Source: an uncultured Planctomycetales bacterium (lineage in GTDB: Bacteria; Omnitrophota; Gorgyraeia; Gygaellales; Profunditerraquicolaceae). From it: 57,563 nucleotides of DNA. Location: positions 1-57,563 of the forward strand of contig CAZJFL010000002.1 of NCBI GenBank assembly GCA_964545575.1, in the 5' to 3' direction. Under the pieces are notes generated by a model. That model searched no databases and was not told where the DNA came from. It worked only from the letters and a program-made list of their open reading frames with translations. Both the position numbers and the translations under genes were made by a program. This document shows positions 3,614 through 46,038 of the stretch, piece by piece (the first letter of the stretch is position 1; the number at the start of each line of letters is the position of its first letter).

Positions 3614-4213
3614 ATGTTAACGATACTGAAGCCTTATCTTTTAAGTTTTATCCCGATATTCGTGGCAGTGGATGCCATCGGTAATATCCCGCTTTTTGTT
3701 TCTTTGGTAGAGGGTACCACCAAGAAACAAAAGGATAAGATAATTGTCGATTCGGTAACTACGGCTACGGTGGTGGCGATTCTCTTTATGTTCGTCGGAA
3801 AATGGGTTTTAAGCATACTGGGGATTACCATCCCTGATTTTCAAATCGCTGGAGGCCTGCTCTTATTTGTCATTGCGGTGCGGCTCCTGCTTCCCGGTAC
3901 GCAAAAAAGCCTTTTGTCCAACGGCCATGATAAGGATGTGGGCGTTTTTCCTTTAGGCACGCCTTTGATCACCGGCCCGGCAGTTTTAACCACTACTTTA
4001 ATCATGCTGGATAGTTTCGGCCTGACAGTTACCTTCGTATCTTTAGCGATTAATATGTTGATCGTTTGGCTTACTCTGGTTAAAGCAGATTCGATTATGC
4101 GCATTATGGGTTCCGGCGGCACCCGGGCCTTTGCCAAAATTATGTATATCCTGCTTGCCGCAATCGGAGTGATGATGGTCAGGCGCGGGATTGTCGGGGT
4201 ATTCCTGAAATGA
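3614..4213 (+). CDS. MarC family (UPF0056) integral membrane protein
   Basis: 199-aa polytopic protein. IPIFVAVDAIGNIPLF and PLGTPLITGPAVLTT are typical of MarC/SnatA. Confidence 0.8.
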   Translation: MLTILKPYLLSFIPIFVAVDAIGNIPLFVSLVEGTTKKQKDKIIVDSVTTATVVAILFMFVGKWVLSILGITIPDFQIAGGLLLFVIAVRLLLPGTQKSLLSNGHDKDVGVFPLGTPLITGPAVLTTTLIMLDSFGLTVTFVSLAINMLIVWLTLVKADSIMRIMGSGGTRAFAKIMYILLAAIGVMMVRRGIVGVFLK

Positions 4214-5436
4214 TGAAGAAAGTCTTAACTTTTATTATGGCCGGCGGCAAGGGCGAGCGTTTATGGCCCCTGACTAAAGACCGCACCAAGCCGGCGGTTC
4301 CTTTCGGCGGAATATACCGCGTCATCGATTTTACTTTAAGCAACTGTATTAATTCGGGGCTGCGCAGGATTTATGTGCTGACCCAGTATAAGTCCGCGTC
4401 TTTACAGCGCCACATCCGTTTAGGCTGGAATATCCTGCCTTCGGAGCTCGGTCAGTATATCGAGCTTTTGCCGGCGCAGCAGAGGGTAGGGGAGACCTGG
4501 TACCTGGGCACGGCAGACGCCATTTATCAGAATTTTTATGCCGCAGAAATGGAGCGGCCCGATGAGGTGCTTATTCTTGCCGGAGACCATATTTACAAAA
4601 TGAATTATTACACCATGATTGATTTCCACCGCCAAGAGGAGGCGGATCTGACCGTCGGGGTGGTCGAGATAGATAAAGAAAAAGCCAGGCAATTAGGGGT
4701 AGTAGAGGTAGATAACCGGGGCAGGGTAAAAGGATTCCAGGAAAAGCCGCTTAGCCCTAAAACAAAAGGCGATGATCTTGCCAAGGCCTATGCCTCGATG
4801 GGGATTTACGTTTTTAAGAGTACGGTGCTGGAGAAGGAGTTGATAGAGGATTCCCGTAAAAATAATTCCACCCATGATTTCGGCAAAGATATTATTCCGC
4901 AGATGCTTAAAAAAAACCTTAAGGTTGCGGCTTATAATTTCATCGATGAAAATAAAAAAGAAGCCAGATACTGGCGCGATATCGGGACAATCGATGCCTA
5001 TTACGAAGCAAATATGGACTTGATCACCGTTGACCCGGTGTTTAATCTTTATGACCAGGATTGGCCTATCCGGACTTATCAGGAACAGTTTCCTCCGGTA
5101 AAGACGGTTTTTTCCGGCGAAGAGATTGCCGGGCGCGTGGGGTTGGTGCTGGATTCTTTGGTCTCCAGCGGCTGCGTGGTCAGCGGCGGCCGGGTGCAGC
5201 GTTCGGTGCTTTCTCCCAACGTCAGGATCCATAGCTATTCCCAAATCCATGATTCTATACTCATGGAAGGGGTAAACGTCGGCAGGTACGCTAAAATAAA
5301 AAGGGCGATCATCGATAAGGACGTGGATATCCCGCAGGGGATGGTCATCGGTTATGATGCGGGAGAGGACAAAAAGAGGTTTCAGGTCAGTGAATCCGGC
5401 ATTGTGATTGTGGCCAAAGGCACGGAGATTAAGTAG
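4210..5436 (+). CDS. glgC: glucose-1-phosphate adenylyltransferase
   Basis: LAGGKGERLWPLT-type N-terminus (IMAGGKGERLWPLTKDRTKPAVPFGG), YLGTADA motif, and a C-terminal left-handed beta-helix region. Confidence 0.93.
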   Translation: MMKKVLTFIMAGGKGERLWPLTKDRTKPAVPFGGIYRVIDFTLSNCINSGLRRIYVLTQYKSASLQRHIRLGWNILPSELGQYIELLPAQQRVGETWYLGTADAIYQNFYAAEMERPDEVLILAGDHIYKMNYYTMIDFHRQEEADLTVGVVEIDKEKARQLGVVEVDNRGRVKGFQEKPLSPKTKGDDLAKAYASMGIYVFKSTVLEKELIEDSRKNNSTHDFGKDIIPQMLKKNLKVAAYNFIDENKKEARYWRDIGTIDAYYEANMDLITVDPVFNLYDQDWPIRTYQEQFPPVKTVFSGEEIAGRVGLVLDSLVSSGCVVSGGRVQRSVLSPNVRIHSYSQIHDSILMEGVNVGRYAKIKRAIIDKDVDIPQGMVIGYDAGEDKKRFQVSESGIVIVAKGTEIK

Positions 5437-5968: not shown

Positions 5969-6023
5969 AATATAATCCGCATGGTAAAATTTCGCGCGCA
6001 ATATACATAAAGGAGGCAAGAGC

Positions 6024-7175
6024 ATGGATTATTTATTGACCGATGAACAGAAGATGGTAAAAGAACTGGCGCGCAAGATCGCCGAGGAAAAAATCCGGCC
6101 GGTAGCGGCCATTTACGACCAGAGAGAAGAATACCCCTGGGAGATGATCAAAGTCATTGCCGACGCCGGGCTCTTCGGCTTATTCATACCGGAAGAATAC
6201 GGCGGAATGAGCGTAGGCGTGCTTAACCTTTGCATTGCCACCGAGGAGATGTCGCGTGCCTGCGGAGGTATCGCAGTATGCTATGCCGCTTCAGCGCTGG
6301 GGACGTTTCCGATAGTGCTTTTTGGCAGCGAAGAGCAGAAGAAAAAGTATCTTCCGGATTTAGCCAGCGGTAAAAAATTAGCTGCTTTTGCGGTTACCGA
6401 GCCGGAGGCAGGTTCTGATGCTTCGGCAATTACCACCAGCGCAAAAAAACAAGGGGATCATTACCTCTTAAACGGCCTGAAGCATTTTATCACCAACGGC
6501 GGGGAGGCCGAAATCTACGTCGTTATTGCTATGACTGATAAAACCAAGGGCGCCCGGGGCGCATCCGCTTTTATCGTCGAGAAAGGAACCCCCGGCTTTA
6601 CTTTCGGCAAGAAAGAGGATAAATTAGGGATACGTGCTTCTTCTACCCGTGAGCTTATCTTTACCGATTGTAAAGTTTCCAAAGAGAACCTATTGGTCAG
6701 AGAAGGCATGGGTTTTATCATAACTATGAAGGCCTTTGATATGTCGCGGCCGGGAGTAGCTGCCCAGGCATTGGGGATCGCTCAGGGGGCATTGGAGTTA
6801 GCGGTAAAATATGCTAAAGAAAGGCGCCAGTTCGGTAAATCTATCTCCGCTTTTCAGGGGATTCAGTGGATGATCGCGGATATGGCGACCCAAGTAGAGG
6901 CTGCGCGGGCTTTAGTATATGCCGCGGCAAGAATGGTAGATGCCGGGATTAAAGAAATAGGCAAAGAATCGGCGATGGCTAAGATGTACGCTTCGGATGT
7001 GGCGATGAAAGTTGCAATCGATGCGCTGCAGATATTCGGCGGATACGGCTATATGCGCGATTACCCGATAGAAAAATACGTGCGCGACGCTAAGATCACC
7101 CAGATTTACGAAGGCACGAATCAGATCCAGCGTAATATCATTGCGCTAGAAATAATCAAGGAATTGGCAAAATAG
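6024..7175 (+). CDS. acyl-CoA dehydrogenase (butyryl-CoA dehydrogenase-like)
   Basis: 383 aa with AFAVTEPEAGSDA, a C-terminal YEGTNQIQR catalytic region, and etfBA immediately downstream. Confidence 0.93.
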   Translation: MDYLLTDEQKMVKELARKIAEEKIRPVAAIYDQREEYPWEMIKVIADAGLFGLFIPEEYGGMSVGVLNLCIATEEMSRACGGIAVCYAASALGTFPIVLFGSEEQKKKYLPDLASGKKLAAFAVTEPEAGSDASAITTSAKKQGDHYLLNGLKHFITNGGEAEIYVVIAMTDKTKGARGASAFIVEKGTPGFTFGKKEDKLGIRASSTRELIFTDCKVSKENLLVREGMGFIITMKAFDMSRPGVAAQALGIAQGALELAVKYAKERRQFGKSISAFQGIQWMIADMATQVEAARALVYAAARMVDAGIKEIGKESAMAKMYASDVAMKVAIDALQIFGGYGYMRDYPIEKYVRDAKITQIYEGTNQIQRNIIALEIIKELAK

Positions 7176-7232
7176 TGTCAAAGTGTCAAAGTATCAGGTG
7201 TCATGACACTTTGACACCTGACACTTTGATAC
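7175..7232. repeat. hairpin built from tandem 8-nt units (GTGTCAAA / GTATCAGG)
   Basis: 7175-7188 is the perfect reverse complement of 7204-7217 (14 bp). A second register pairs 7183-7203 with 7212-7232. The element fills the acd-etfB spacer. Confidence 0.8.
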
Positions 7233-7248
7233 AAATACTAATTTTAAT

Positions 7249-8031
7249 ATGCACATTATAGTTTGCATCAAACAGGTCCCCGAGACTACCGAAGTGCGGA
7301 TTAATCCTGAAACTAACACCCTCATCCGCGAGGGGGTCAAGTCTATTATTAATCCTTTTGATATGTATGCTATCGAAGAAGCGGTGCGCCTGAAAGAGAA
7401 GTTCGGCGGCAAGAGCACGGTCATTACCATGGGGCCTCCCCAGGCAGAAGCAGCTTTAAGGGAAGCTGTATCTTTAGGGATGGACGAAGCGATATTGATC
7501 TCTGACCGCGCCTTTGCCGGAAGCGATACCTGGGCTACCAGCTACACTTTATCCGCAGCGATTAAAAAAATCGGGGCATTTGATTTGATTATCTGCGGTA
7601 AACAAGCCTCTGATGGCGATACCGCCCAGGTCGGCCCGGGCATTTCCACCCATTTAGATATCCCGCAGGTAACTTATGTGAAAAAAATAGAGGAAGTAAA
7701 GGAAAAGAGTATGCGCGTAGAAAGGATGCTAGAGGAGGGGTATGAAATTATCCAGACCCCGCTGCCGTGCTTACTTACCGTAGTCAAAGAAATCAATGAA
7801 CCGAGGCTGCCTTCGTTAAAAGGGATGCTACGCGCAAAATCCGCCCGGATCATTACCTGGGGACAAAAGGATCTTAATCTTAACCCGGAGCAGATAGGTT
7901 TATGCGGTTCCCCTACGCAGGTGATTAAAATCTTCACTCCCCCGCATCGTTTGGGAGGGCAGATCTTAAAAGGCGAAATCCCTGAGATCGTCAGCCAGCT
8001 GGTAGACTTACTCCGGCCGGAGGTGCCTTAA
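7249..8031 (+). CDS. etfB: electron transfer flavoprotein beta subunit
   Basis: MHIIVCIKQVPE N-terminus and a GKQASDGDTAQVGP motif. Confidence 0.92.
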   Translation: MHIIVCIKQVPETTEVRINPETNTLIREGVKSIINPFDMYAIEEAVRLKEKFGGKSTVITMGPPQAEAALREAVSLGMDEAILISDRAFAGSDTWATSYTLSAAIKKIGAFDLIICGKQASDGDTAQVGPGISTHLDIPQVTYVKKIEEVKEKSMRVERMLEEGYEIIQTPLPCLLTVVKEINEPRLPSLKGMLRAKSARIITWGQKDLNLNPEQIGLCGSPTQVIKIFTPPHRLGGQILKGEIPEIVSQLVDLLRPEVP

Positions 8032-9320: not shown

Positions 9321-9662
9321 ATGGATAATGCAGACTTTATAGAAAAACGGGCTTTTCCTCGATTTCCGGTAAGCATCCCCGTGGATTACTCTGATTTGAC
9401 TTCCCATAAAACTGCCCAGGGATATACCCAAGACATCAGCGCTCAGGGTTTGGGTTTAGTTACGCAGGATAAATTATCTGTGGGCACATCTTTGGATATT
9501 TGTTTGCGCATCGCGGATAACGGCGAGGAAATCCGCAGAAGAGGCACTGTGGTCTGGTCGAATATGCTCGAACCGGAGAAATACCGGGCAGGAATTAAAT
9601 TAGAAGAGCCAAAACTTAAACCCATCCCGCTGGTTTTAAGAACCGTCAGCCAGAAAATCTAA
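9321..9662 (+). CDS. PilZ domain protein (c-di-GMP receptor)
   Basis: RxxxR-type motif (KRAFPR) plus DISAQGLG (D/NxSxxG). Confidence 0.8.
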   Translation: MDNADFIEKRAFPRFPVSIPVDYSDLTSHKTAQGYTQDISAQGLGLVTQDKLSVGTSLDICLRIADNGEEIRRRGTVVWSNMLEPEKYRAGIKLEEPKLKPIPLVLRTVSQKI

Positions 9663-10115: not shown

Positions 10116-13100
10116 ATGTATTTTAAAAGATTAGAGCTCATCGGGTTCAAATCATTTTTCAATAAAACCACGCTTAATTTTGAGCCCGGTATCACCGCGA
10201 TAGTCGGGCCTAACGGTTGCGGTAAGTCTAATATCTTTGATGCCATCCGCTGGGTACTGGGCGAACAATCCGTCAAGTCCCTGCGTGGTTCAGAGATGCA
10301 GGACGTTATTTTCAACGGCACGGATCTTAAAGAGCCTCTCTCTATGGCAGAGGTCACTTTAATTTTTGATAACAGCACCCGGTTTTTTCAGCTAGATCAG
10401 CAGGAGGTGGTAGTAACCCGCAGGATTTTCAGGTCCGGAGAGAGTGAATACCTTCTGAATAAGACACTGGTGCGCCTGAAAGATATTTTAGATTTACTGA
10501 TGGGTACCGGTATCGGAGCGGAAAGCTATTCTTTGGTGGCGCAGGGCAAAATTGACCTCATCTTAAGCTCAAGGCCGGAAGACCGGCGCCTGGTTTTTGA
10601 TGAGGCAGCAGGCATCACCAAATATAAAACACAAAAGAAAGAGGCCCAGCGCAGGTTAGAAGAGACAGAGCAGAATCTTTTGCGCGTAAATGACATCGTG
10701 GTGGAAGTCAAGCGCCAGATCGGCTCGCTTGAACGCCAGGCGAATAAGGCGCGTAGATACCAGGAAGTATTCGCAGAGTTAAAAGCTAAGGAGGGGGTGC
10801 TGGCGCTTTCCCAGAAGAGCGAATTAGAGAAAGAGAAAAACGAAATAGCCGCAAAACTTGGCAAGATCATGTCCAGGCAGCAGGAATTGCTGGAGCTGAT
10901 CACCCAGCAGGAAGCCCGGATTAATTCCCATACTCGGGATTTAAAGGCTTTTGAAGACAGGATCCTGGATATCAAGAATCAGGTCTTAAGCCTGGATAAT
11001 GTTATCTTGCGCAATAAAGAACGCATCGGCTTTAACCAGGAGAGGGTTAAGGAGCTAGAGTCCGATAAAAAATATCTCCAAGGGCAAATCGAACAGACCA
11101 AAAACAGGCTCGCGCAGGATGAGGAAAAATTAGGCCACCTGAAAAAAGAGTACGCCGGCATAAATAATAATATTTTAGAGAAAACCGCCCTATTAAACGA
11201 AAAAGAAATACAGCTTAACAATATCACCGTCTCTATAAAATCAGCTTTAGAAAATATCGCATCGGCAAAAAAATCTATTTTAGATTTAGCCGCCCGGATC
11301 GCCGGTAAGAGAAACGAAATTACGGAATATTCTTCTAAAGACCAGATATACCTGGCGCGCCAGAAGCGCTTGGCGTTAGAAAAGGCTAAACTTAATGAAG
11401 AGCGCTCAGTAGTAGAGGCCAGCTTAAACAGCGTAAATCAGGAAGTAGAAACGCTTGAAAGGGACTTCGCCGGCATAGAGGCAGGGATCCGAGACAGGCA
11501 AACCGAAGCAGAGAAAGAAAACGGGTCTTTAAATAGCCTGAATACAGAAATCGCCGCCTTAGAAAAGCAAAGCCTCACCCTGCATTCGCAGAAAGAGTTT
11601 CTGGATAAGCTGAAAACCGAATACGAGGGGATAGGCGAATCGATGAATGCGCTGGTTTATCTGGATAAATTACCCAGCGATAAAGTAACCGGCCTGGTCT
11701 TAAAAATAAAAGAATACCTTAATTTAAACGACCAGGATAAGCAGGCGTTCGGCGTCGCCAGCCTTAAATTAAGCGGCGAGGCAAAACCCGTTGATTTAGA
11801 TACGCACAAGATCAGCGAAAAGATTGAACAGGCGAGAAACAAGATAGAGGCCTTACGAGGCGCCAAAGCAGAAAAAGAGAGGTGCCTGGAGGAATTAGGC
11901 AGCTTGATCGCTAAACTTAAAGAAGGCCTGCGCGCCCAAGAGATAGAGCTGGTCAATAAAAAGGCTTACCGTTCCGGCATCCTGGAGCAGTGCGGAAAAA
12001 TTAAAGAAGAAGACCAGATCATCGCCCTTGAGCTTGCTGACGTGGAGCGGGAATTATCGCTGTTAGAGGAAAAAATCTCCCAAATGCAGTCTGCCTTGGC
12101 GGCTGTAGAAGACGAAGAGAAGCATAAAGACGAATTGATTTTGCGAGAGCAGAATAATATTACTGCGCAGAATAGCTCTAAAGAAGAAGCAATAGTATTG
12201 ATTACCCAGACCAAGACCGAAATAGAAGACTTAAACAGGCGCCTCTCTTCCGACCAGAGTACGCTGGTTATCCTGGAGGATACCTGTCGGCAGGATAGGG
12301 AAACGCTGGAAAATCTAGAGCGGCAAATAGCGGATAACCAGTCCAAGTGCGCATCGCTTTCGCAAGAGATAAAAGATTTAGAGGCAAAAATAAAAGAGGC
12401 GGCCGATGATATCCGGGTCCAGCATGAGTCTTTAAGCCAGGTGCAGGATAAATACCGCGAGGTTTTCGGTGACCACGACGAGGTGCTTAAAAAAATAGAG
12501 CTGGATAAGAAAGAGCTGGATGGCCACAAGAACGGGGTGCACGAATTAGAAATGCGGGGCAAAGAAATAGATTACCGCTATTTAAGCATCAAAGAGAGGA
12601 TGCTGGGGGCTTACAAAATAGATTTAGATAGCCTGTATCAGGATAATCCGCTGGCGATAGACCCGGGATTAATTACTGAAGAAATACGCCTCTTGAAAGA
12701 GAAGCTGGATTCCTACGGCACGGTTAACCTGGTGGCGATAGAAGAATACGATGAGCTTAAAAAACGTTATGATTTTCTAACCCAGCAGCAGAATGATTTA
12801 CTTTCTGCCAAAGGATCCCTGCACGATGCAATACTTAAGATCAACCGCACCACTAAACTGTTATTCATGGAGACCTTTGAAAAAGTAAGGCAGGAGTTCC
12901 GCAACTATTTCCGGCTCTTATTTAACGGCGGCGATGCGCAGGTTTTCTTAATTGACGAGCAGGACCCTTTAGAATCGGGCATCGAAATCATCTGCCGGCC
13001 TCCGGGAAAGAAGCTGCAGAATGTCCTCTTGCTTTCGGGAGGAGAAAAAGCCCTGGCGGCAATAGCCTTGATTTTCGCCATCTTTAAAATCAAGCCCGCG

Positions 13101-13349
13101 CCCTTCTGCGTATTGGATGAAATAGACGCGGCGTTAGATGAGGCTAATGTTGACCGCTACAGCCGCCTGCTTCAGGAATTTGCCAAGGATTCGCAGTTTA
13201 TCGCCATTACCCATAACAAAAAGACCATTGCCAATGCCGACGTGATGTACGGAATAACTATGGAAGAGTCCGGGATTTCCAAGATCGTCTCGGTAAAGCT
13301 CGCTCAGAACAGGGATAAAGATAAAGCACCGGATATGGCGGCGGTTTAA
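10116..13349 (+). CDS. smc: chromosome segregation protein SMC
   Basis: 1077 aa. N-terminal Walker A GPNGCGKSN, long coiled coils, a hinge, and C-terminal LSGGEK and LDEIDAALD motifs. Confidence 0.95.
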   Translation: MYFKRLELIGFKSFFNKTTLNFEPGITAIVGPNGCGKSNIFDAIRWVLGEQSVKSLRGSEMQDVIFNGTDLKEPLSMAEVTLIFDNSTRFFQLDQQEVVVTRRIFRSGESEYLLNKTLVRLKDILDLLMGTGIGAESYSLVAQGKIDLILSSRPEDRRLVFDEAAGITKYKTQKKEAQRRLEETEQNLLRVNDIVVEVKRQIGSLERQANKARRYQEVFAELKAKEGVLALSQKSELEKEKNEIAAKLGKIMSRQQELLELITQQEARINSHTRDLKAFEDRILDIKNQVLSLDNVILRNKERIGFNQERVKELESDKKYLQGQIEQTKNRLAQDEEKLGHLKKEYAGINNNILEKTALLNEKEIQLNNITVSIKSALENIASAKKSILDLAARIAGKRNEITEYSSKDQIYLARQKRLALEKAKLNEERSVVEASLNSVNQEVETLERDFAGIEAGIRDRQTEAEKENGSLNSLNTEIAALEKQSLTLHSQKEFLDKLKTEYEGIGESMNALVYLDKLPSDKVTGLVLKIKEYLNLNDQDKQAFGVASLKLSGEAKPVDLDTHKISEKIEQARNKIEALRGAKAEKERCLEELGSLIAKLKEGLRAQEIELVNKKAYRSGILEQCGKIKEEDQIIALELADVERELSLLEEKISQMQSALAAVEDEEKHKDELILREQNNITAQNSSKEEAIVLITQTKTEIEDLNRRLSSDQSTLVILEDTCRQDRETLENLERQIADNQSKCASLSQEIKDLEAKIKEAADDIRVQHESLSQVQDKYREVFGDHDEVLKKIELDKKELDGHKNGVHELEMRGKEIDYRYLSIKERMLGAYKIDLDSLYQDNPLAIDPGLITEEIRLLKEKLDSYGTVNLVAIEEYDELKKRYDFLTQQQNDLLSAKGSLHDAILKINRTTKLLFMETFEKVRQEFRNYFRLLFNGGDAQVFLIDEQDPLESGIEIICRPPGKKLQNVLLLSGGEKALAAIALIFAIFKIKPAPFCVLDEIDAALDEANVDRYSRLLQEFAKDSQFIAITHNKKTIANADVMYGITMEESGISKIVSVKLAQNRDKDKAPDMAAV

Positions 13350-13355
13350 GTAGCT

Positions 13356-14519
13356 TTAAGAACAGGTGGTGTTTTTGCCTTTATGCTTTGCCTGGTAGAG
13401 CGCCTGGTCGGAATAGTGAATTAGTTCGGTAGGGTTAGAGCCGTTTTCCGGATGGGAAGATACGCCGATACTGACGGTTAGTTTTTTATTGGGCAGGACC
13501 TCTTCATAGACAAAATGCTGCTTTCCAATATCTATCCTTAATCTCTCCGCGATTAAAAGCGCCTCTTTCTTGTCGGTCTGCGGTAAGATAATCATAAACT
13601 CTTCTCCGCCGTAACGGCAGACAGAATCCATTTTACGGGATTGGTTTTTAATCAGTGCCGCCATTTCCTTAAGTATTTTATCGCCTGCCTGATGGCCGAG
13701 GGTGTCGTTATAGATCTTAAAATCATCTATGTCTATGGCCAGGAGGCTAGTGGGCTGCTTGGTTACTTTTGCTTTTTCTAATTCCGTCTGCAGGAGATAC
13801 TGGAAATAACCGTGGTTCCAGAGCTCAGTCAGCGAATCGGTGTGGCTACGCATTACCGTTTTTTCGTAAAGTTGGGAGTTTTCTATAGCCAGGCCGGCTT
13901 GGTTGGCAAGCATGATCAGCATGCTCATATCGTCCTTGGTAATCGGCTCTTTGGTGATGAAATTATCCGCCAGGATTATACCGTTTACCTTATCCTTTGC
14001 CTTTAAAGGCACGATCGCCATCTCCTCGCTGTGTAGTAAATGGATAATCTGGTCTTGGAAGTGTTTTTGTATGTTATCTTTAGTTAAATGCAGGGGCATA
14101 CCGTCGAGTACCCCTAAGGCAAGCAGCCCTCCGTTTTGTTCATCCATGGGTAGTTTCAGGTGTTTGATCTGCTGGTTGAGCCCCGATTCGATGATGCCCC
14201 CGGAGATCTTATAGGTATTAATCAGGTCATCCAGGGTCATCTGCTCCTTTTCTATATGCCACCAGATACGGTTAGCCTCTTCGGTGTTTTCCGGCCCGAT
14301 CCCCATTTTGCCTTCGATAATACCTTCTTTTTCATTCACCAGGAAAAGCATTGCCCGGTTAAAACCCAACCCTAAATGCGCAGTGACGCCGGTCAGGATG
14401 ATGTATAAAATCTCATCCAGTTTTAAGGTTGTGCGCATGGCATTGGAGATCTCATAGAGGATGGAAAGCTCTACCTTAGTGCGCTCTAGCTCCTGCTTTA
14501 TTTTAGCCAGTTCTTCCAT
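13356..14519 (-). CDS. GAF-GGDEF diguanylate cyclase
   Basis: N-terminal coiled coil plus GAF-like region. Active-site GGEEF with an RKMD (RxxD) I-site five residues upstream. Confidence 0.9.
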   Translation of the reverse strand: MEELAKIKQELERTKVELSILYEISNAMRTTLKLDEILYIILTGVTAHLGLGFNRAMLFLVNEKEGIIEGKMGIGPENTEEANRIWWHIEKEQMTLDDLINTYKISGGIIESGLNQQIKHLKLPMDEQNGGLLALGVLDGMPLHLTKDNIQKHFQDQIIHLLHSEEMAIVPLKAKDKVNGIILADNFITKEPITKDDMSMLIMLANQAGLAIENSQLYEKTVMRSHTDSLTELWNHGYFQYLLQTELEKAKVTKQPTSLLAIDIDDFKIYNDTLGHQAGDKILKEMAALIKNQSRKMDSVCRYGGEEFMIILPQTDKKEALLIAERLRIDIGKQHFVYEEVLPNKKLTVSIGVSSHPENGSNPTELIHYSDQALYQAKHKGKNTTCS

Positions 14520-34564: not shown

Positions 34565-34593
34565 TTGACAGACGGTAAAATATATGTTATATT
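34565..34593 (+). promoter_or_regulatory. sigma70-like promoter for PilZ gene
   Basis: TTGACA, 17-nt spacer, TATATT. It coincides with the spurious TTG start given in the ORF track. Confidence 0.55.
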
Positions 34594-34648
34594 TTATCTA
34601 AATCAGGGAGAAAAAGCCACGGCTTCCTTGAACCAGAAGGGAGCAAAT

Positions 34649-34993
34649 ATGGTTTTTATACCAGAAGAGAAGAGGCGCTTTCCCCGTATAAAAGTCCGGC
34701 TGCCGCTACGTTATCAGGTCAGAGGTACCCCTGAGTTTAATAATGTCATCACCGAAGATATTAGTTTGTCCGGCATAGGCTTTGCCAGCGATAAGTTTAT
34801 TGCCCCGGCGACTAAAGTGATGTTAGAAATCAATGCCTTGTTGCACATCCTTACTCCTATAGGCAGGGTCGCCTGGACCGCATCTTCGCCGCATTCTGAC
34901 AAATACCATTCGGGTGTCGAGTTTGTCCAGCTGGACCGGAACCAAAAAAAGTACCTCCAGGATTTTATCGGCATGCAGGCATTGAGAGTATAG
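34649..34993 (+). CDS. PilZ domain protein
   Basis: EKRRFPRIKV plus DISLSGIGF motifs. ATG 34649 is preceded by AAGGGAG. Confidence 0.8.
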   Translation: MVFIPEEKRRFPRIKVRLPLRYQVRGTPEFNNVITEDISLSGIGFASDKFIAPATKVMLEINALLHILTPIGRVAWTASSPHSDKYHSGVEFVQLDRNQKKYLQDFIGMQALRV

Positions 34994-39813: not shown

Positions 39814-40638
39814 TCATGCCGAACCAGCTAAAAACCGCTCATATTTACGCTCTAAAAACAGCCTATTTTGGGCATTTTTATATAGAATATTGAATAATTT
39901 AACGCTATCTTTGTGGTCATATATAAACATATAGCTCCATCCGTTCTTCGTCTTTTGAATATATATGGTCCTTTTAGGCATACCTAATGACTCAAGGCTC
40001 TGCTGTAATCCTATAATAAAATCTTTAGAACTACTGACAAATTTTGACCTTAAGGGGAATTTTGGCCGGCGTTTATCAAAAAAAACGCTCCCATCTCCGT
40101 CAAAAACGCCTCTTATAAAATCCGCTAGATAAGCTTCCGGAACGTTGGGAAATTGAACTATCAGGCTTTTCTTGGGCACAACGCATAATTTCTTTAGATC
40201 CTTAACTATTTTTTCTCTAGAAAAGTGGTAACAATAGAGTCTTTTTTGATGCCTAGATGGAGTTATTTTATGTGCCGAACCCATAACTTTTTTAACTTTT
40301 TCAAGTAACTCTTTGTCATTCATACTAAGAGAAACGGTTCCTGCCCCTGAAATACAGCCATCTGTAATGATTAGGCCTAATACATATGCCATTTCTGGCG
40401 ACCAATCGCTAAAGAAATTCTCGTTTATATCAAAGAATTGCTGCGTTAATTTGCCCTGTTTTTGGGCCTCAATTCGAGCCTCTGATTTAGAGCGCTGGGC
40501 TATGCCGAATTTCTTAAGTTTTTTATAAACCGCTATGCGAGAAACCTTGTATAATCTGGCTATATCTTCTAAAGACTTCTTCTTATTTATATAAAGATCG
40601 GTTAAATTTTCTTTATTTAAATCGTTTAATTTAGCCAT
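39814..40638 (-). CDS. free-standing HTH + double-motif LAGLIDADG endonuclease-like protein
   Basis: N-terminal HTH (LEDIARLYKVSRIAVYKKL). Two LAGLIDADG motifs (AYVLGLIITDGCI and LADFIRGVFDGDGSV). Confidence 0.85.
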   Translation of the reverse strand: MAKLNDLNKENLTDLYINKKKSLEDIARLYKVSRIAVYKKLKKFGIAQRSKSEARIEAQKQGKLTQQFFDINENFFSDWSPEMAYVLGLIITDGCISGAGTVSLSMNDKELLEKVKKVMGSAHKITPSRHQKRLYCYHFSREKIVKDLKKLCVVPKKSLIVQFPNVPEAYLADFIRGVFDGDGSVFFDKRRPKFPLRSKFVSSSKDFIIGLQQSLESLGMPKRTIYIQKTKNGWSYMFIYDHKDSVKLFNILYKNAQNRLFLERKYERFLAGSA

Positions 40639-41103: not shown

Positions 41104-41289
41104 TTAAATCTCGGCGTCCTTAACTAACTTGCGGTAATAATCTATACACTGATGACAGGTTTTGCCTTCTTTTTTCCACTCCGGGTGGGCTTTCTGGATT
41201 AATTGCAAAAGGTATTCTTCGGCTTTAATATGCGAGATGCTGACATAATCATCGATATCCCGATCACAGAGCTGGCACCTGTATTTCAT
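41104..41289 (-). CDS. small Cys4 (zinc-ribbon-like) protein
   Basis: MKYRCQLCDR...CHQC. ATGA overlap with the upstream gene. Confidence 0.5.
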   Translation of the reverse strand: MKYRCQLCDRDIDDYVSISHIKAEEYLLQLIQKAHPEWKKEGKTCHQCIDYYRKLVKDAEI

Positions 41290-41468
41290 CTGATGCAATC
41301 CGATCTCCAGCAGCAGAGTTGTTGGTCGCAAGAGCCGCGGGCAGTGCCGAAACAGTCAAAGCTACCTTCAGAGCGCTGGATCTGTTTGATCAGCTCTTTT
41401 TTAGAAAACTTCCAGGTATCTTTGATCCTTAAGTTGCGGGCTTTCTTTTCTATTTCCGTAAGCCTCAT
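41286..41468 (-). CDS. Rho-N/SAP-like small protein with C-terminal CFGT..CDQ..C.WR.DC motif
   Basis: N-terminal helix-extended-helix (LTEIEKKARNLRIK...KKELIKQIQ) and a conserved Cys-rich tail. Confidence 0.55.
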   Translation of the reverse strand: MRLTEIEKKARNLRIKDTWKFSKKELIKQIQRSEGSFDCFGTARGSCDQQLCCWRSDCIR

Positions 41469-41481
41469 ACTCCACCTCCCC

Positions 41482-41877
41482 TTAAACTTTATAAATTATA
41501 TCGTGTTGCCTTACCCGTGAATTGACCTGAAAGCCTATTTCGTCGCCTTTTTTAGCGGAATCGACCACCACGTGGTTAATCTGTATGGAAGCGATGGTTT
41601 GGGTAAAGTCAGTAGTATGGCCCTTGATTTTGATGGTGTCTCCCACCGCTAAAGGCGCCTTTAATTTTGTCACTGCTGCCTGGACATGCGGGAAATAATG
41701 CGTAACCTTTCCTATGACCGTGCCTTGTTCTTTAGGTTTAGCTGCAGGAGCAAGAGCCTTGCGTTTTTTAGCTACAGGCTTTCTTTTACGGGGTTTTAGA
41801 GCAACCTTTCTTTTGACCGCCCTCTTTTTAAGGGTTATTTTCTTCTTTTTTACCGCTTTCTTCTTTTTTTTCGCCAT
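41482..41877 (-). CDS. Lys-rich (histone-H1-like) N-terminus + translation-elongation-factor-like beta-barrel domain protein
   Basis: About 50 aa of K/R/A/P-rich sequence, then IGKVTHYFPHVQAAV...VGDTIKIKGHTTDF...KGDEIGFQV (EF-Tu domain-2-like). Confidence 0.65.
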   Translation of the reverse strand: MAKKKKKAVKKKKITLKKRAVKRKVALKPRKRKPVAKKRKALAPAAKPKEQGTVIGKVTHYFPHVQAAVTKLKAPLAVGDTIKIKGHTTDFTQTIASIQINHVVVDSAKKGDEIGFQVNSRVRQHDIIYKV

Positions 41878-41895: not shown

Positions 41896-42225
41896 TTAAA
41901 GTATCACCTTATCGGCGATATTTGAAATTACCGGCATGCGCCCATAATTACCCGCTAGTGCCTGCCAGATGCCCCATAAGGAAGCCAGGCTAAATACTAC
42001 TATTGCCGCTATTCTTATCGCTACACCCACAAAAGGGATAATCGAGAGAATAAATGCCCCCACCTCAAAGACAAATAATACTAAGCCTTGCTTGGCATGA
42101 TAGAGCGCAAACTTATTATCCTTTTTTAGGCTCAAACTGATGATGCAAAAGAAAGCAAGGTAAGAAATCAAAGCAAAAACCTTACCTTCCTGTATTTGTT
42201 TATCTGCTTCGGATATATCGCTCAA
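41896..42225 (-). CDS. DUF4870-like small membrane protein
   Basis: Three TM segments and an ALYHAKQGL motif. Confidence 0.65.
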   Translation of the reverse strand: MSDISEADKQIQEGKVFALISYLAFFCIISLSLKKDNKFALYHAKQGLVLFVFEVGAFILSIIPFVGVAIRIAAIVVFSLASLWGIWQALAGNYGRMPVISNIADKVIL

Positions 42226-42229
42226 TTTA

Positions 42230-43318
42230 TTATCCCGCCGCCTTTACCTCTACGAGGGAGTCCATTTCGCCGTAGGGGTTAACCTCTTTGTGGGGGTTAG
42301 CCGGGTCTTCGGTCCATTTTCCGTCAATCACAAAACGATAATGGTGCTGGCCGGGGGCAAGCCTTAATTTTTTGGTCCAGGCACCGTTATGTTGCTCCAT
42401 GCGGCTTTTATGGTCCAGCTGCCAGCCGTTAAAATCTCCTGCGACATAAACTTCTCCTGCCCCGGGCGCAGACACCGAGAATATAGTTTCAAGAAACCTG
42501 GGGAGCTCTTCTTTGAGTATCTCCTCCATTTTTTCCCTTAACTTCGGCATGTCTAAGGGTGTTGCTTCCTGCGTGATCACCTCACGCGATAAGCTAAAAT
42601 AATCTTTTGCCCCGCGGCAGTACTTATCGTAGCTTAGGATATGCCTGCCTTCGTTTTGCGCCTCTTTAAGCTTTACATTTACGTGGATGATGGTGCTAAA
42701 CATGCGGTTAGGGAAAGCCGCTTTTACTTTGTTTAAGATTTTGAAGGAGTGCTGCAGGCGCGAATCGAAGTTGATCACTAAGATGCGGTAATCCACCACA
42801 TGTTTTAGTCTGTCTCTAATGAGGTTGATGATTTCCGTAATCTGGCTTAAGCCTTCCAGGGAGAACCTGCTTGCCTCTACAGGGATGATTATTTCATCCG
42901 ATGCGCGGATAGCATTTATGGTTAAGATGCCTAAACTTGGCGGGCAGTCGATGAGGATATAGTCGTAATTGTCTTTGATGCTATCCAGTACTTCCCAGAG
43001 CCGCGATTCCCTGCCGATTTCTCCGGCTAATTCCTGTTCCAGGGTGCTTAAGACTATTCCCGAAGGGGCGATATCAAAATTAGCGCCGATATGCTGGATG
43101 ATATCCGCAAGCTTTGCCTTTTGGTGCGTCAGTTTGGAGAGGACATTATAAATACTTAAGTCTGATTGAATGTTAAGCCCGAGGGTGGCGTGTGACTGGG
43201 GGTCTAAGTCTATCAAAAGGACGCGCCGGGCATTAGCCGCCAGGGAGGCAGCCAGATTTACGGCGGTGGTAGTTTTGCCGCAACCCCCTTTTTGGTTAGC
43301 GATAGAAATGATGCGCAT
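42230..43318 (-). CDS. ParA/MinD-family ATPase fused to C-terminal CBM48/AMPK-beta-like glycogen-binding domain
   Basis: Deviant Walker A NQKGGCGKTTT, LLIDLDPQ, ILIDCPPSLG. The C-terminus VYVAGDFNGWQ...HHYRFVIDGKWTEDPANP matches the glycogen-binding module pattern. Confidence 0.85.
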   Translation of the reverse strand: MRIISIANQKGGCGKTTTAVNLAASLAANARRVLLIDLDPQSHATLGLNIQSDLSIYNVLSKLTHQKAKLADIIQHIGANFDIAPSGIVLSTLEQELAGEIGRESRLWEVLDSIKDNYDYILIDCPPSLGILTINAIRASDEIIIPVEASRFSLEGLSQITEIINLIRDRLKHVVDYRILVINFDSRLQHSFKILNKVKAAFPNRMFSTIIHVNVKLKEAQNEGRHILSYDKYCRGAKDYFSLSREVITQEATPLDMPKLREKMEEILKEELPRFLETIFSVSAPGAGEVYVAGDFNGWQLDHKSRMEQHNGAWTKKLRLAPGQHHYRFVIDGKWTEDPANPHKEVNPYGEMDSLVEVKAAG

Positions 43319-43334: not shown

Positions 43335-43895
43335 TTATTTTAACAGGCTGATATTGTCAAGATAAGCGATGCCGTTTTTCTCTTTTGCGTTCCATTCCTC
43401 CACGATAAAAGAAAGGCTGGTAGCTTGCGATAATCTGGCGATGCCTTTAAAATCCGCCAGATTTATTTTATACTCCTGCCATTTATAGGGTAAGTCTTTG
43501 ATATAGACTGCGGATTTCTCTTTGAAGCCGCTGGTAAGTTCAATCTTTAAGTTTATTTTATTGAAATAGCCGGTTTTCCTGGCCGCAAAAGATAACACCC
43601 TAAAGCGCGATAAGTTTAAGCGGTTTAGCTTTATAGTATAGGCTTCCTTTTTGGCAGGGTTAAAATTAAAGTTAATTTTTACGGTTTCCGGTTGGAGGAT
43701 TAAAGCGATTTCAGAATCAGGCGGGGTTTTGCCAAGAGGGCCAAGGACCAAAACAACGAGTATCAAGGCAAGCGGAATACCCGCCCAGAGTATTTTTTTA
43801 AAGCCCAGAGGGTATCTCCGGCCCTTCTTTTTACGCTTAGAAGAAGCATCCAGGTAGATTTTTGCCAGATGTTCGTAGATATCTTTTTTGTCCAT
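43335..43895 (-). CDS. membrane-anchored protein with C-terminal beta-sandwich (CBM/CIA30-like?) domain
   Basis: I chose the start at MDKKDIY, downstream of a promoter-like site. Basic stretch, one TM helix, and a C-terminal ...GIAYLDNISLL. Confidence 0.55.
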   Translation of the reverse strand: MDKKDIYEHLAKIYLDASSKRKKKGRRYPLGFKKILWAGIPLALILVVLVLGPLGKTPPDSEIALILQPETVKINFNFNPAKKEAYTIKLNRLNLSRFRVLSFAARKTGYFNKINLKIELTSGFKEKSAVYIKDLPYKWQEYKINLADFKGIARLSQATSLSFIVEEWNAKEKNGIAYLDNISLLK

Positions 43896-43961: not shown

Positions 43962-45512
43962 TTAACTTAATGGCTTGTTGAGGTATTCAGGGATATCTTT
44001 GCCAAGCAGCGTATAAAAATTAGTCAAGTGCATCCTGAAGAGCCGGTCAAAGCTGCCGTCAGGATCTTCTCCTGCCCACCAGAACCAATCGCTTCCCTCC
44101 AGTATATACATTTGTTTATAGGCTAGTTCAGTGTTCAGTGTTCGGTGTTCAGTGCTTGCCAACTCTTTCCGGGCCAGCGCCAGCCACTCCCAGGCTTTAA
44201 CTTTTTTTGGGCTACCTATCCATTTGCTGAAATTGCCGTATATCCAGGAGCCTGCGCTCAAGCGCTTAATTTCATTTCTGGGGGGGTGAGTTTTTAGGTA
44301 TTCGCTTACGGTGGAAGTTTCAAGGAATGGGCTTTCCGACAATTTCCGGTAAAGCAGCTCCAGGAAGTCATGGCCGTCGCGGGGGTAATATTCCCAGGCA
44401 TTTTCTCCGTCCATGGCCACCGTAACCAGTATATCTTTATCCACAAAAGTATCGGCAATGATTTTTAAGTGCCCTAAGAAATCCGCTACCGCATCCGCGG
44501 CAGTAAGCCGGTGATAGACGAAGCCGATTAGATCAGAGAGGTTCCTGTCCCTAAAGACGATATTTAAGTTGCCCTCTTCTCTTTTTAAGAGGTGGGGTTG
44601 GTAAATTAGCGAAGCCTCCCTCCTCTTCTTTTTAAGCGACTTAAATAATATTGCCTCGTCCGCAACTATCCAGTTTATGCCGGCATTGATGATAAAAGGC
44701 AAGATGTGCTCGGATACGGATTCTTCCGAAGGCCACATCCCGCCGGGGGCTCTAGCGAAGAGGGATTTATGCAGCTCTACGGCTAAGGTTATCTGCTCCT
44801 TAGCATCTTGGGGATAGGCAAACTCTATCTTAGGCAGGATCGTTTTGGGGTTAGCTTCTTTGGCAATTTTGGTGCTGTAAAGCAGGGGCAATATCGGGTG
44901 GTAAAAAGGAGTGGTGGTAATTTCGATCTGGCCGCGTTCTTGGATTTTGCGATAAGCAGGTATGATTTCTTTTAAAGTCCCTAGCTGGATATCTAAAACC
45001 GAAAGCTTCTCCTCTTCGCTAAAAAATCTCCCTTTCTCAACTAATCTTTTTAATTCCGGGATGCGCTCTCTTAAGTCCGGGTCAAACCAGGCCAGGTTAA
45101 ACCAGGCCACCAGGTCCAGATAATCCTGGGTATTAAACTCCTTCGCGTTCCCTTTTTTAAAATATAACTCATAATAACGGGGGAAGAGCGAGATTACGGT
45201 CTCGGTGTTAATGCTGAAGAAGTTTTGCAGGATAAAGTTTTTATCCGCGCCGGTCAGTTCCCGGGCCGGTTTACGGGAAAGCTCAAGGTAACTATCTTTT
45301 ACCCGGCCGCCGCAATAATCCTCTATTTGTTCTAGCATAGATGGCACAAGGTTAAAGGTTTGCCTTATGGCGGGGTAATTCTCTAGGATCTCTACCATAT
45401 CCAGGTAATCTTTAATCCCGTGCAGGCGCACCCAGGGCGTATCCACCTCCTGGTTCAGGAGATTTTTGTAATAAGGCTGGTGCATGTGGTAGATGAAGGC
45501 TAGATATAGCAT
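43962..45512 (-). CDS. glycoside hydrolase family 57 (alpha-glucan-active enzyme)
   Basis: N-terminal YHMHQPYY and WVRLHGIKDY, a central GH57 catalytic region, and C-terminal EGSDWFWW. Confidence 0.9.
   Translation of the reverse strand: MLYLAFIYHMHQPYYKNLLNQEVDTPWVRLHGIKDYLDMVEILENYPAIRQTFNLVPSMLEQIEDYCGGRVKDSYLELSRKPARELTGADKNFILQNFFSINTETVISLFPRYYELYFKKGNAKEFNTQDYLDLVAWFNLAWFDPDLRERIPELKRLVEKGRFFSEEEKLSVLDIQLGTLKEIIPAYRKIQERGQIEITTTPFYHPILPLLYSTKIAKEANPKTILPKIEFAYPQDAKEQITLAVELHKSLFARAPGGMWPSEESVSEHILPFIINAGINWIVADEAILFKSLKKKRREASLIYQPHLLKREEGNLNIVFRDRNLSDLIGFVYHRLTAADAVADFLGHLKIIADTFVDKDILVTVAMDGENAWEYYPRDGHDFLELLYRKLSESPFLETSTVSEYLKTHPPRNEIKRLSAGSWIYGNFSKWIGSPKKVKAWEWLALARKELASTEHRTLNTELAYKQMYILEGSDWFWWAGEDPDGSFDRLFRMHLTNFYTLLGKDIPEYLNKPLS
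44126..44154. repeat. four tandem GTTCAGT/GTTCGGT heptamers inside the GH57 CDS
   Basis: The + strand reads GTTCAGTGTTCAGTGTTCGGTGTTCAGTG. On the coding strand it is translated in frame as TEHRTLNTEL. Confidence 0.8.
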
Positions 45513-45531: not shown

Positions 45532-45562
45532 GGTCTATAGTCTATGGTCTATAGTCGATAGT
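45532..45562. repeat. left 31-bp inverted-repeat arm (GGTCTAT/AGTCTAT heptamers) flanking the four-helix-bundle gene
   Basis: GGTCTATAGTCTATGGTCTATAGTCGATAGT matches the reverse complement of 45930-45960 at 27 of 31 positions (hand alignment). It abuts the stop codon. Confidence 0.85.
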
Positions 45563-45919
45563 TTATTTTTTCAAATAATTTTTAAAAGCGTGCAGCATTT
45601 TTGAAATTTGTTCACATTGGCCATAAAAAGAAGAAAATTCAGTTTGGCTCATATACTTTTGTTCTAAGCTTATATATAGAATAGTAACCACCTCATTTAG
45701 GGATCCTATAGCTATTTGGATAAAGCGGCGTAAATCCGCGTCAGAACCCCTGCCTTCTCCCTCTGCTATGTTTAAACTGATAGATACTGCGGCCCTGTTT
45801 AACTGTGCAGTTATCCCGAATTGCTCTTCTTTTGGAAATTTTTTCGTTAAGGTATAAATTTCGCTGGCGAATTTAACCGATTCTTTCCAAATTTTTAGCT
45901 CTTCAAATTTAAACGCCAT
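45563..45919 (-). CDS. four-helix-bundle protein (23S rRNA intervening-sequence protein / Avd-like family)
   Basis: ELKIWKESVKFASEIY...QLNRAAVSISLNIAEG...FIQIAIGSLNE pattern of the S23p/IVS family. Confidence 0.9.
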   Translation of the reverse strand: MAFKFEELKIWKESVKFASEIYTLTKKFPKEEQFGITAQLNRAAVSISLNIAEGEGRGSDADLRRFIQIAIGSLNEVVTILYISLEQKYMSQTEFSSFYGQCEQISKMLHAFKNYLKK

Positions 45920-45929
45920 ATTTGCCTTT

Positions 45930-45960
45930 ACTATAGACTATTGACTATCGACTATAGACC
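45930..45960. repeat. right 31-bp inverted-repeat arm
   Basis: ACTATAGACTATTGACTATCGACTATAGACC, located 10 nt upstream of the gene's ATG. Confidence 0.85.
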
Positions 45961-45979
45961 CAGCGCTATTAGCTGTCAA
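45951..45979 (-). promoter_or_regulatory. sigma70-like promoter whose -10 lies inside the repeat arm
   Basis: Minus strand: TTGACA, 17-nt spacer, TATAGT. Confidence 0.5.
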
Positions 45980-45983
45980 TAAT

Positions 45984-46016
45984 AAAAAACCCCCGGGGGA
46001 TTGCTCCCCCGAGGGT
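45984..46016 (-). terminator. rho-independent terminator of the porin gene
   Basis: Minus strand: GGGGGA-GCAA-TCCCCC stem-loop (with flanking G/C) followed by TTTTTT. Confidence 0.65.
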
Positions 46017-46038
46017 CTTGTTTATTACATTAGCTGTT

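Follow-up and report, generated by a model that had tools for sequence, protein, structure and literature searches.

A 57,563-nucleotide stretch of contig CAZJFL010000002.1, from an Omnitrophota genome deposited as an uncultured Planctomycetales bacterium (the whole stretch is called the window below), carries on its minus strand a gene for a 362-aa protein in which a ParA/MinD ATPase is joined to a carbohydrate-binding module (CBM) of family CBM48. The gene occupies 42230..43318, including the stop codon, and begins with ATG in the list of open reading frames (ORFs); both domains are recognized by Pfam. The fusion is very probably a ParA-type ATPase that binds alpha-glucan. A role in positioning or partitioning glycogen on the nucleoid is a tentative proposal, which we find about as easy to doubt as to defend. 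We are slightly more guarded about the wider picture, in which glycogen granules would be an actively managed cargo of the ParA/MinD family, the cargo domain would be built into the ATPase, and unrelated partner proteins would have converged on or borrowed the ParB peptide. Such a system would belong to the near-core genes of Omnitrophota and extend to Desulfobacterota, Nitrospirota, and other PVC bacteria.

The ATPase domain

A sequence-only reading of this DNA, made without database searches, had reported this ORF together with three ParA motifs, all of which are present exactly as claimed: KGGCGKTTT at residues 10-18, LLIDLDPQ at 34-41, and ILIDCPPSLG at 121-130. It had also assigned a complete ParA-type ATPase to the N-terminal ~250 residues, and the profile searches agree. 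Residues 1 to ~252 (42563..43318, minus strand) form a Soj-like ParA domain according to AAA_31, Foldseek, phmmer, and residue conservation. The AAA_31 match covers residues 1-173 (E 1.9e-57) and is accompanied by matches to CbiA (E 6.6e-20) and to MipZ and BcsQ-type families. The key positions are in place, namely K10 and K15 of the deviant Walker A motif (xKGGxGK[ST] with its signature lysine, here NQKGGCGKTT at residues 8-17), D37 and D39, and the Walker B residue D124. Similarities to the ParA, MinD, and RepA models of NCBIfam were all below threshold, those to the MinD models far below cutoff, so that no equivalog model claims the fusion protein.

An AlphaFold2 (AF2) model of the fusion, built with a 69-sequence alignment (predicted local distance difference test, pLDDT, 77.6), was compared with the PDB using Foldseek. 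The best match was B. subtilis Soj (9A6N; 43% identity, TM(target) 0.81), followed by a ParA-ATP structure (8RAY, 39-40%), Thermus Soj (2BEK, 36%), and H. pylori Soj (33%). McdA matched more weakly, at ranks 17-22 with 25-26% identity, as did MinD, FlhG, and BcsQ with 15-24%. TM(target) to the Soj, ParA, and McdA structures was 0.76-0.83, and phmmer aligned the ATPase to 8RAY with an E value of 2.9e-52. The search was run on the whole model, and its ranking is dominated by the ATPase domain, with the CBM fold not matched on its own. Because this ranking is headed by Soj and ParA, the ATPase is, by structural and sequence comparison, of the Soj type. In alignments to Thermus Soj and 8RAY, R187 coincides with the arginine of the Soj DxR motif and K216 with the second arginine of PRNVRL, positions that we take to be the DNA-binding arginines of Soj (presumably R189 and R218 in B. 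subtilis). The fusion protein has no signal peptide, no transmembrane (TM) segment, and no hydrophobic or amphipathic C-terminal tail. Glycogen is the usual cytoplasmic alpha-glucan.

The predicted glycogen-binding domain and its linker

The C-terminal part of the protein, residues 276-362 (42233..42493, minus strand), was assigned to the AMPK-beta-type CBM48 on the basis of two Pfam families, the alignment to 1Z0N, and the AF2 model. The resemblance to AMPK beta and CBM48 had been part of the sequence-only reading, and it was confirmed by the profile search, in which both families scored above their gathering cutoffs: AMPK1_CBM (PF16561) at residues 286-360 (55.6 bits, with the cutoff at 26.8; E 6.3e-15) and CBM_48 (PF02922) at residues 277-338 (25.6 bits, with the cutoff at 22.4; E 1.5e-5). 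The last 108 aa matched the CBM of rat AMPK beta1 (1Z0N) with an E value of 3.3e-11; further matches were, in order, AMPK beta2, an archaeal neopullulanase, SEX4, Sip2, a pullulanase, LSF1, and, weakly, GlgB. In the 1Z0N alignment, W299, R328, W335, Y349, and D353 stand at the positions of AMPK beta1 W100, K126, W133, L146, and N150, which we take to be its carbohydrate contacts (Polekhina et al. 2005; residue numbers as worked out again on the 1Z0N construct). The AF2 model consists of a Rossmann-like ATPase domain, an ill-defined linker, and eight beta strands within residues 276-358 at pLDDT 79-88. Four giant proteins with 6-17 tandem AMPK-beta-like CBMs and no ParA domain, P0122 (1812 aa), P0157 (1436 aa), P0205 (1409 aa), and P0262 (844 aa), also rank among the best matches to the C-terminal domain.

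The linker, residues 253-275 (42494..42562, minus strand), is modelled at pLDDT 46-60 with a predicted helix at 258-269, and is the least conserved segment of the protein. Across the family its length ranges from 10 to 380 aa, and the long forms are disordered, with acidic repeats or a composition rich in Ala and Pro. A linker so variable and disordered favors a tether over a rigid, AMPK-like allosteric sensor.

Distribution and conservation of the family

The best 120 matches in a search of 5.8 billion proteins were all full-length fusions of ~360 aa with 69-85% identity, from Candidatus Omnitrophota where named; one cluster, P0001, is 100% identical to the window protein. In an exhaustive search of 1.84 billion cluster representatives (50% identity) followed by domain mapping, an N-terminal ParA with a C-terminal CBM was found in 135 of the best 150 clusters. 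A profile search with 55 diverse representatives yielded named fusions from Desulfobacterales, Desulfobacteraceae, "Deltaproteobacteria", a "PVC group bacterium", and Omnitrophota, and a long-linker form of 718 aa comes from Nitrospirota. Among GTDB genomes, taken as one genome per species, at least 583 contain a tblastn-confirmed relative of the fusion; the architecture was read in the best 80 of these, a set that the query alignment biases towards Omnitrophota. All 80 are Omnitrophota with full-length or contig-truncated fusions, some of them deposited as "Planctomycetales" metagenome-assembled genomes (MAGs); the only cultivated carrier, Ca. Velamenicoccus archaeovorus LiM, is represented among them by a complete genome. 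By way of comparison, GTDB R232 has 705 species representatives of Omnitrophota according to a recent preprint. The fusion is thus not peculiar to one genome, and ParA-CBM proteins are, judged by this breadth, a large and old family. Their database names are generic, such as "AAA family ATPase" or "chromosome partitioning protein". Many MAGs labelled "uncultured Planctomycetales bacterium" (L012, L015, L016, L027, L029, L034, L036, and others) carry a fusion 65-72% identical to that of the window in the same synteny, and their labels are probably wrong.

Conservation was examined in two sets, one of 69 orthologues and one of 55 distant representatives whose identity to the window protein is 32-45%. 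K10, K15, D37, D39, and D124 are invariant in the distant set, and K10 and K15 in the orthologues too; the Walker A lysines, for which the sequence-only reading had raised the question of degeneracy, are therefore intact throughout. In the CBM of the 55 distant members, W299 and Y327 are invariant, W335 is kept in 95%, a K or R at position 328 in 98%, an N or D at 353 in 91%, and an F, Y, or L at 349 in 65%. R187 and K216, at the presumed DNA-binding positions, are basic in all orthologues and in 91% and 69%, respectively, of the distant members, in which K218, on the basic surface, is basic in 87%. The Cys within Walker A (KGGCGKTT) is a signature of the fusion family. The mean identity between pairs of family members reaches 0.40 in the ATPase and 0.37 in the CBM but falls to 0.10 in the linker. 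By this measure, the ATPase and the CBM are both under selection and equally constrained, and the linker is free. Both domains look functional and are conserved across several phyla.

Partner proteins with a ParB-like peptide

Two groups of loci, here called class A and class B, carry a characteristic gene directly downstream of the fusion. Class B comprises six loci (L007, L008, L010, L095, L096, and L097), five of them from Desulfobacteraceae or close relatives, with fusions of 41-44% identity; after 7-14 bp the fusion is followed by a gene for a Cys-containing protein of 184-190 aa. Since the other flanking genes differ between most of these loci, the conserved unit is a two-gene module. 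Class A comprises four loci, namely L009 (PVC group), L092 (an Omnitrophota MAG), L093, and L094. Its downstream partner is a ~300-aa protein with a degenerate MinD/ParA fold that lacks Walker A (CbiA, E 3.6e-5; minD_arch, E 2e-6), and a third gene encodes a ~225-aa protein with weak similarity to NucS_C, a nuclease fold (E 1.4e-4); the two genes lie at 11107-12704 in L009, 9128-10748 in L092, 9153-10753 in L093, and 9121-10694 in L094. A pseudo-ParA as the partner of a ParA would be unusual. At three of the four class A loci, Cu-oxidase_4, DUF4912, and a branching enzyme of glycoside hydrolase family 57 (GH57) follow 2.5-4.7 kb downstream; this enzyme (Glyco_hydro_57 with BE_C; NF041133, 339 bits) is of another type than the GH57 enzyme of the window.

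The class A and class B partners are unrelated save for their first ~20 residues, where the pattern M.KK.LG[RK]G[LI][ED][DE]IS occurs at every locus (6/6 in class B, 4/4 in class A). The class B consensus is M.KKSLGRGL[DE][DE]IS.[IV]FLS, with MAKKSLGRGLDDISDVFLST as the candidate stimulating peptide, and the class A consensus is ..K.KKLGKGLEDISYLFLS. The same motif is found at the same place in the deposited chains of H. pylori ParB (MAKNKVLGRGLADIF; 4UMK) and Caulobacter ParB (GLGRGLSALL, GLGRGLSALLGE; 6T1F), which were reached by a query with a ParB N-domain. A search of the PDB with the 25-aa partner peptide gave no match. The N-terminal peptide of ParB contacts and stimulates ParA. A positively charged N-terminus is, as a rule, the part through which partners of ParA/MinD ATPases work (PMC10241942). 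Because their downstream proteins bear this ParB-like peptide, the class A and class B fusions are predicted to have dedicated partners, which lack the ParB domains (helix-turn-helix, HTH, and CTPase). The sequence-only reading had supposed that the fused cargo module takes the place of an adaptor; the neighbors with a ParB-like peptide contradict this at 10 of 10 class A and B loci.

The likeness of the ATPase to chromosomal Soj/ParA would also suit a glycogen-sensing ParA of the chromosome or cell cycle, that is, a Soj paralogue, or the sole Soj in reduced genomes, that uses ParB-type peptides. By analogy with AMPK beta, whose CBM couples glycogen to a kinase, the CBM48 would then report the carbon reserve to segregation or replication control. 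The class A and B peptides are near-copies of the ParB N-terminus, so that cross-talk with a real ParB is conceivable, and the clade of the window has no dedicated LGRGL partner nearby. However, tblastn with the H. pylori ParB N-domain found no ParB-like sequence in 97 related loci (+-10 kb) and the window (1.42 Mb), and the window holds no ParB-family gene and no second Soj-like ParA. Membership of a canonical parAB operon was rejected, as there is no ParB near any of the 97 loci. K03496, K03497, and K00975 (ParA, ParB, and GlgC) are listed for Omnitrophota genomes in the KO lists of published annotation tables, and the listing of both K03496 and K03497 suggests a separate canonical ParAB system in this phylum. 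With partners that have no ParB domains and a disordered linker that is a poor basis for allosteric sensing, a sensing role is distinctly improbable.

Gene neighborhood

In the window, the genes for a GH57 enzyme, a TM protein, the fusion, a 109-aa membrane protein, and a Lys-rich protein follow one another on the minus strand with intergenic gaps of 21, 16, 4, and 18 bp, in the tightly spaced co-directional string that the sequence-only reading had described. The GH57 glycoside hydrolase (516 aa; 43962..45512; PF03065, E 1.5e-64) is not of the branching-enzyme type. Its closest solved relatives belong to the 8ZYI/9IHT family (E 3e-89), the branching enzyme 1UFA reached just E 7e-4, and the NCBIfam branching-enzyme models scored far below cutoff. 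The motifs HQP, GQIEI, WPSE, and DGEN are kept, as compared by eye with what we take to be the conserved regions of GH57. The earlier description of the surroundings as a GH57 glucan cluster was correct for this one enzyme and overstated as to a cluster, since the string contains no other glucan gene. A glgC gene (glucose-1-phosphate adenylyltransferase; NF001947, 571.6 bits against a cutoff of 470; TIGR02091, 480.2 against 424.9) is present in the window as had been reported, but at 4210..5436 on the plus strand it is ~37 kb from the fusion and not linked to it. Because of this gene, the organism should be able to make ADP-glucose for glycogen. The remainder of the window consists of housekeeping genes.

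The ~186-aa TM protein (43335..43895 from ATG, minus strand; extended to 43940 from TTG in the ORF list) is a candidate partner or membrane anchor. It is composed of an N-terminal peptide MDKKDIYEHLAKIYLDASS, a basic stretch, a single TM segment, and a periplasmic beta-rich domain. Twelve K/R residues precede the hydrophobic segment and two follow it, which by the positive-inside rule places the N-terminal peptide in the cytoplasm. The first 16 residues, MDKKDIYEHLAKIYLD, are the best-conserved part of the protein (66% identity against 38% in the ectodomain), and MDKKDIYEHLAKIYLDASSKRKKK is its candidate ATPase-stimulating peptide. This peptide was also considered as a diverged ParB-like peptide and rejected, being absent among the peptide-profile matches; its candidacy is positional. 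The protein has no Pfam match, and with a non-significant CBM11 match (E 0.44) we do not claim the ectodomain as a carbohydrate-binding module.

Downstream of the fusion, the 109-aa protein (41896..42225, minus strand) has about three hydrophobic segments by hydropathy. It had been called a DUF4870 membrane protein; the membrane character stands, but the window protein has no Pfam match even at E<=1, and the family name comes from a weak precomputed match of its orthologues to PF09685 (MamF_MmsF, formerly DUF4870). The 131-aa Lys-rich protein (41482..41877, minus strand) is a candidate partner or nucleoid-binding protein. Its N-terminal half is disordered and polycationic, with K or R at 26 of the first 50 positions, and is followed by a beta barrel like that of EF-Tu domain 2; PF03144 was matched by 12 of 26 orthologues (best E 3.5e-5), and eEFSec domain 2 with E 0.003. 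In the clade of the window, the candidates for a partner are the TM protein, the Lys-rich protein, and the chromosomal ParB. A 75-aa Cys-rich ORF with two CxxC pairs and no Pfam match lies just downstream of the Lys-rich gene (41104-41331, minus strand) and is kept in many Omnitrophota loci at 58-75% identity.

The best sigma-70-like promoter match of a consensus scan (TTGACA-17-TATAGT, 11/12) is located at 45951..45979 on the minus strand. Before it, at 45986..46019 on the same strand, a porin gene ends in a strong hairpin of terminator type, which has a stem of 15 bp with 9 GC pairs and a run of T. Between 41482 and 45950 no minus-strand terminator of comparable strength was found, with one weak intragenic candidate at 44506-44486. 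A probable transcription unit would start at this promoter and comprise the gene of an intervening-sequence protein, GH57, the TM protein, the fusion, the 109-aa protein, and the Lys-rich protein. The porin was rejected as a co-transcribed member, given the hairpin and promoter-like site in between and a synteny that it shares with the flanking housekeeping genes.

Neighborhoods in Omnitrophota were compared in 80 GTDB loci by tblastn with the window proteins, counting loci with enough flank. A ~190-aa TM protein lies directly upstream of the fusion in all 70, the Lys-rich protein downstream in 59 of 63, an Alginate_exp porin upstream in 40 of 46, and a ~108-aa protein with three TM segments directly downstream in 52 of 77. 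GH57 is adjacent at 31 of the 35 loci whose fusion is at least 60% identical to the window protein; at many loci below 60% identity the porin stands directly in front of the TM protein. L091, with a 45%-identical fusion, has an upstream TM protein whose C-terminal domain is homologous to that of the window TM protein. In Ca. Velamenicoccus archaeovorus LiM (L072) the 3-TM protein is missing, and two extra ORFs (166 and 133 aa; 11094-11992), nitroreductase-like and OsmC-like by eye, stand between the fusion and the Lys-rich gene.

The fusion might instead be a scaffold or regulator and not a positioning motor. As a nucleotide switch, it would recruit or sequester either glycogen or an enzyme (GH57, for example) where the TM and 3-TM proteins mark a site on the membrane; by analogy with MinD, its working surface would be glycogen or the membrane in place of the nucleoid. 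The close association with both membrane proteins (70/70 and 52/77 loci) fits this idea, as does the presence of GH57 in the same putative transcription unit. The conserved 16-mer of the TM protein is cytoplasmic and lies at the usual ATPase-interacting site, and the CBM takes the C-terminal place where MinD and FlhG carry a membrane-targeting sequence (PMC10241942). On the other hand, the basic residue at the Soj-type DNA-binding position in 91% of diverse members would be needless if DNA were irrelevant, the class A and class B loci have no membrane-protein neighbors, and the TM peptide does not match the ParB-like peptide profile. We consider such a scaffold unlikely, though worth keeping in mind.

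The porin and the TM protein, with its possibly CBM-like periplasmic domain, also raise the question of whether the C-terminal domain binds a different cargo, such as another glycan, a nascent exported polysaccharide, or a protein; it is this cargo that the ParA would position. Domains of the CBM48 fold and of the E-set type are versatile, and all six class B loci are without glucan genes nearby. Yet the presumed sugar contacts of AMPK beta1 (W100, K126, W133, N150) are conserved across the family, the best sequence matches of the domain are all alpha-glucan binders, and the fusion protein is cytoplasmic. With the porin in a separate transcription unit and the CBM11 similarity of the TM protein non-significant, another cargo seems very improbable.

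A proposed mechanism for glycogen positioning

If the fusion does act on glycogen as a partitioning ATPase, ATP binding would produce a sandwich dimer through the signature lysine K10. The dimer would bind nucleoid DNA non-specifically through the conserved R187 and K216, and its two CBM48 domains would grip glycogen by stacking of W299 and W335, aided by R328 and D353. The positive N-terminal peptide of a partner, ParB-like in classes A and B, would trigger ATP hydrolysis and release. Through repeated rounds of binding and release, glycogen particles may thus be held on the nucleoid, spaced out, and passed on to both daughter cells. The distribution of carboxysomes by McdAB would be a parallel, with cargo binding here located within the ATPase itself. 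In the lineage of the window, where the gene shares a probable transcription unit with a GH57 enzyme and two inner-membrane proteins, a membrane link is also likely.

Linkage to GH57 appears to have arisen in two separate lineages with two different GH57 types. In a genome of ~2000 genes with 1-3 GH57 genes, we roughly estimate a ~1% chance of finding one within 5 kb, so that two independent linkages are unlikely to be due to chance.

Several points weigh against glycogen positioning. The linkage to GH57/glg genes expected by the sequence-only reading holds in close relatives and fails elsewhere: GH57 is adjacent at just 4 of 23 Omnitrophota loci whose fusion is below 60% identity, and at none of the six class B loci, where no glucan gene lies within 10 kb. 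Broader synteny, including PPDK, sigma-70, PRTase, and PHP, is also kept in Omnitrophota, and the gene linkage there partly reflects shared ancestry. A Brownian ratchet normally needs its stimulator on the cargo, which would require the partner to bind glycogen. In the clade of the window, no LGRGL-type peptide was detected within +-10 kb (peptide hidden Markov model, 8277 N-termini, best E 0.81), and a purely nucleoid-based model leaves the two flanking membrane proteins unexplained. Glycogen binding, DNA binding, and localization are all predictions from sequence, and all carriers but one are MAGs. Finally, many Omnitrophota are ultra-small cells (PMC10066038), in which the spacing of granules is of doubtful relevance.

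Comparison with known systems

The fusion is, on the sequence evidence, a member of the ParA/MinD superfamily with a CBM48-family domain, and is not part of a ParABS operon, an McdA, or a MinD. It shares with chromosomal ParA/Soj (9A6N, 2BEK, H. pylori 6IUB/8JMJ) the fold, the catalytic motifs, 33-43% identity, and the position of the DNA-binding arginine, and the class A and B partners use the LG[RK]GL N-terminal peptide of ParB. In contrast to ParABS, it carries a C-terminal CBM48 on a flexible linker, never stands beside parB (97 loci and the window), has a family-specific Cys in Walker A, and is accompanied by partners without the ParB HTH and CTPase. McdAB is similar in that a ParA-family ATPase and a small, fast-evolving adjacent partner form a two-gene module found in unrelated contexts (as in class B), with the presumed job of spreading a cytoplasmic non-DNA inclusion over the nucleoid. 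McdA is, however, a distant match (25-26%), the cargo is bound there by McdB and would be bound here by the ATPase, and it is a protein shell there and would be a polysaccharide here; none of the loci examined contains carboxysome genes.

The CBM of AMPK beta and the plant proteins SEX4, LSF1, and PTST have the same domain family and sugar-contact residues, and bring a non-hydrolytic activity to glucan. These proteins are mostly eukaryotic and deliver a kinase, a phosphatase, or starch synthase, never a ParA-type ATPase. Tethers of the PhaM/PhaF type link polyhydroxybutyrate granules to the nucleoid for inheritance by daughter cells; they are not ATPases, have no ParA fold, and act as passive bifunctional binders. 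They are comparable as a tie between a carbon-storage inclusion and the nucleoid, but involve another polymer and no ParA ATPase. In MinD and FlhG, as may be the case here, a C-terminal extension decides on the surface or cargo (PMC10241942); that of MinD is a short amphipathic membrane helix as opposed to a folded CBM of 85 aa, and identity to MinD is 19-24%. Searches of the full-text literature found no description of a ParA-glycogen or ParA-CBM48 system, in line with the sequence-only reading, which had known of none. New features would be the class of cargo, the transfer of cargo binding into the ATPase, and the reuse of the ParB peptide on unrelated partners.

Other features of the window

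Between the porin terminator and GH57 lies the gene of a PF05635 "23S rRNA intervening-sequence protein" (45563-45919, minus strand; four-helix bundle, E 4e-39), bracketed exactly by 31-39-nt inverted repeats of CTATAGAC-type units, whose arms at 45532-45562 and 45930-45960 are 87% complementary. A PF05635 gene is found at the same spot only sometimes (L022, L032) and otherwise elsewhere (L003, L066, L070, L085, and L072 at 12696-13061). The segment 45532-45960 looks like a small mobile or intervening-sequence-like cassette. In the close relatives L001-L003, the gap between porin and GH57 (~5800-7750) contains toxin-antitoxin-like genes of the PhdYeFM/ParE and AbiEii/HTH types, so that this gap looks like an insertion hotspot. 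A free-standing ORF resembling a LAGLIDADG_3 homing endonuclease, with an N-terminal HTH, adjoins a DUF134 regulator at 39814-40638 (minus strand), and a similar ORF occurs in L012. Genes of cyclic di-GMP signalling are also present, namely two for PilZ-domain proteins and one for a GGDEF diguanylate cyclase (9321-9662, 13356-14519, and 34565-34993), with an SMC gene alongside (10116-13349).

Significance

ParA/MinD ATPases organize chromosomes, plasmids, carboxysomes, chemoreceptor arrays, flagella, and the divisome. If the proposed role is true, the fusion would add to the cargoes of this family the first polysaccharide, neither DNA nor protein, and would be the first case of a cargo-binding domain inside the ATPase. 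To our knowledge, the placement and inheritance of storage polysaccharide in bacteria are essentially uncharted, and a ParA with a built-in glycogen domain would offer a molecular handle on them. With matrix binding, cargo binding, and ATPase in one polypeptide plus a short activating peptide, the fusion may also be a natural "minimal positioning system"; minimal positioning designs are sought by synthetic biologists (PMC10241942). The class A and B partners suggest that the N-terminal peptide of ParB is a portable tag on unrelated proteins. Generic annotation of a family that spans at least 135 clusters at 50% identity misleads the interpretation of genomes, especially in the poorly understood Omnitrophota, and the widespread occurrence of the fusion suggests that some bacteria may actively tether or distribute their glycogen stores.

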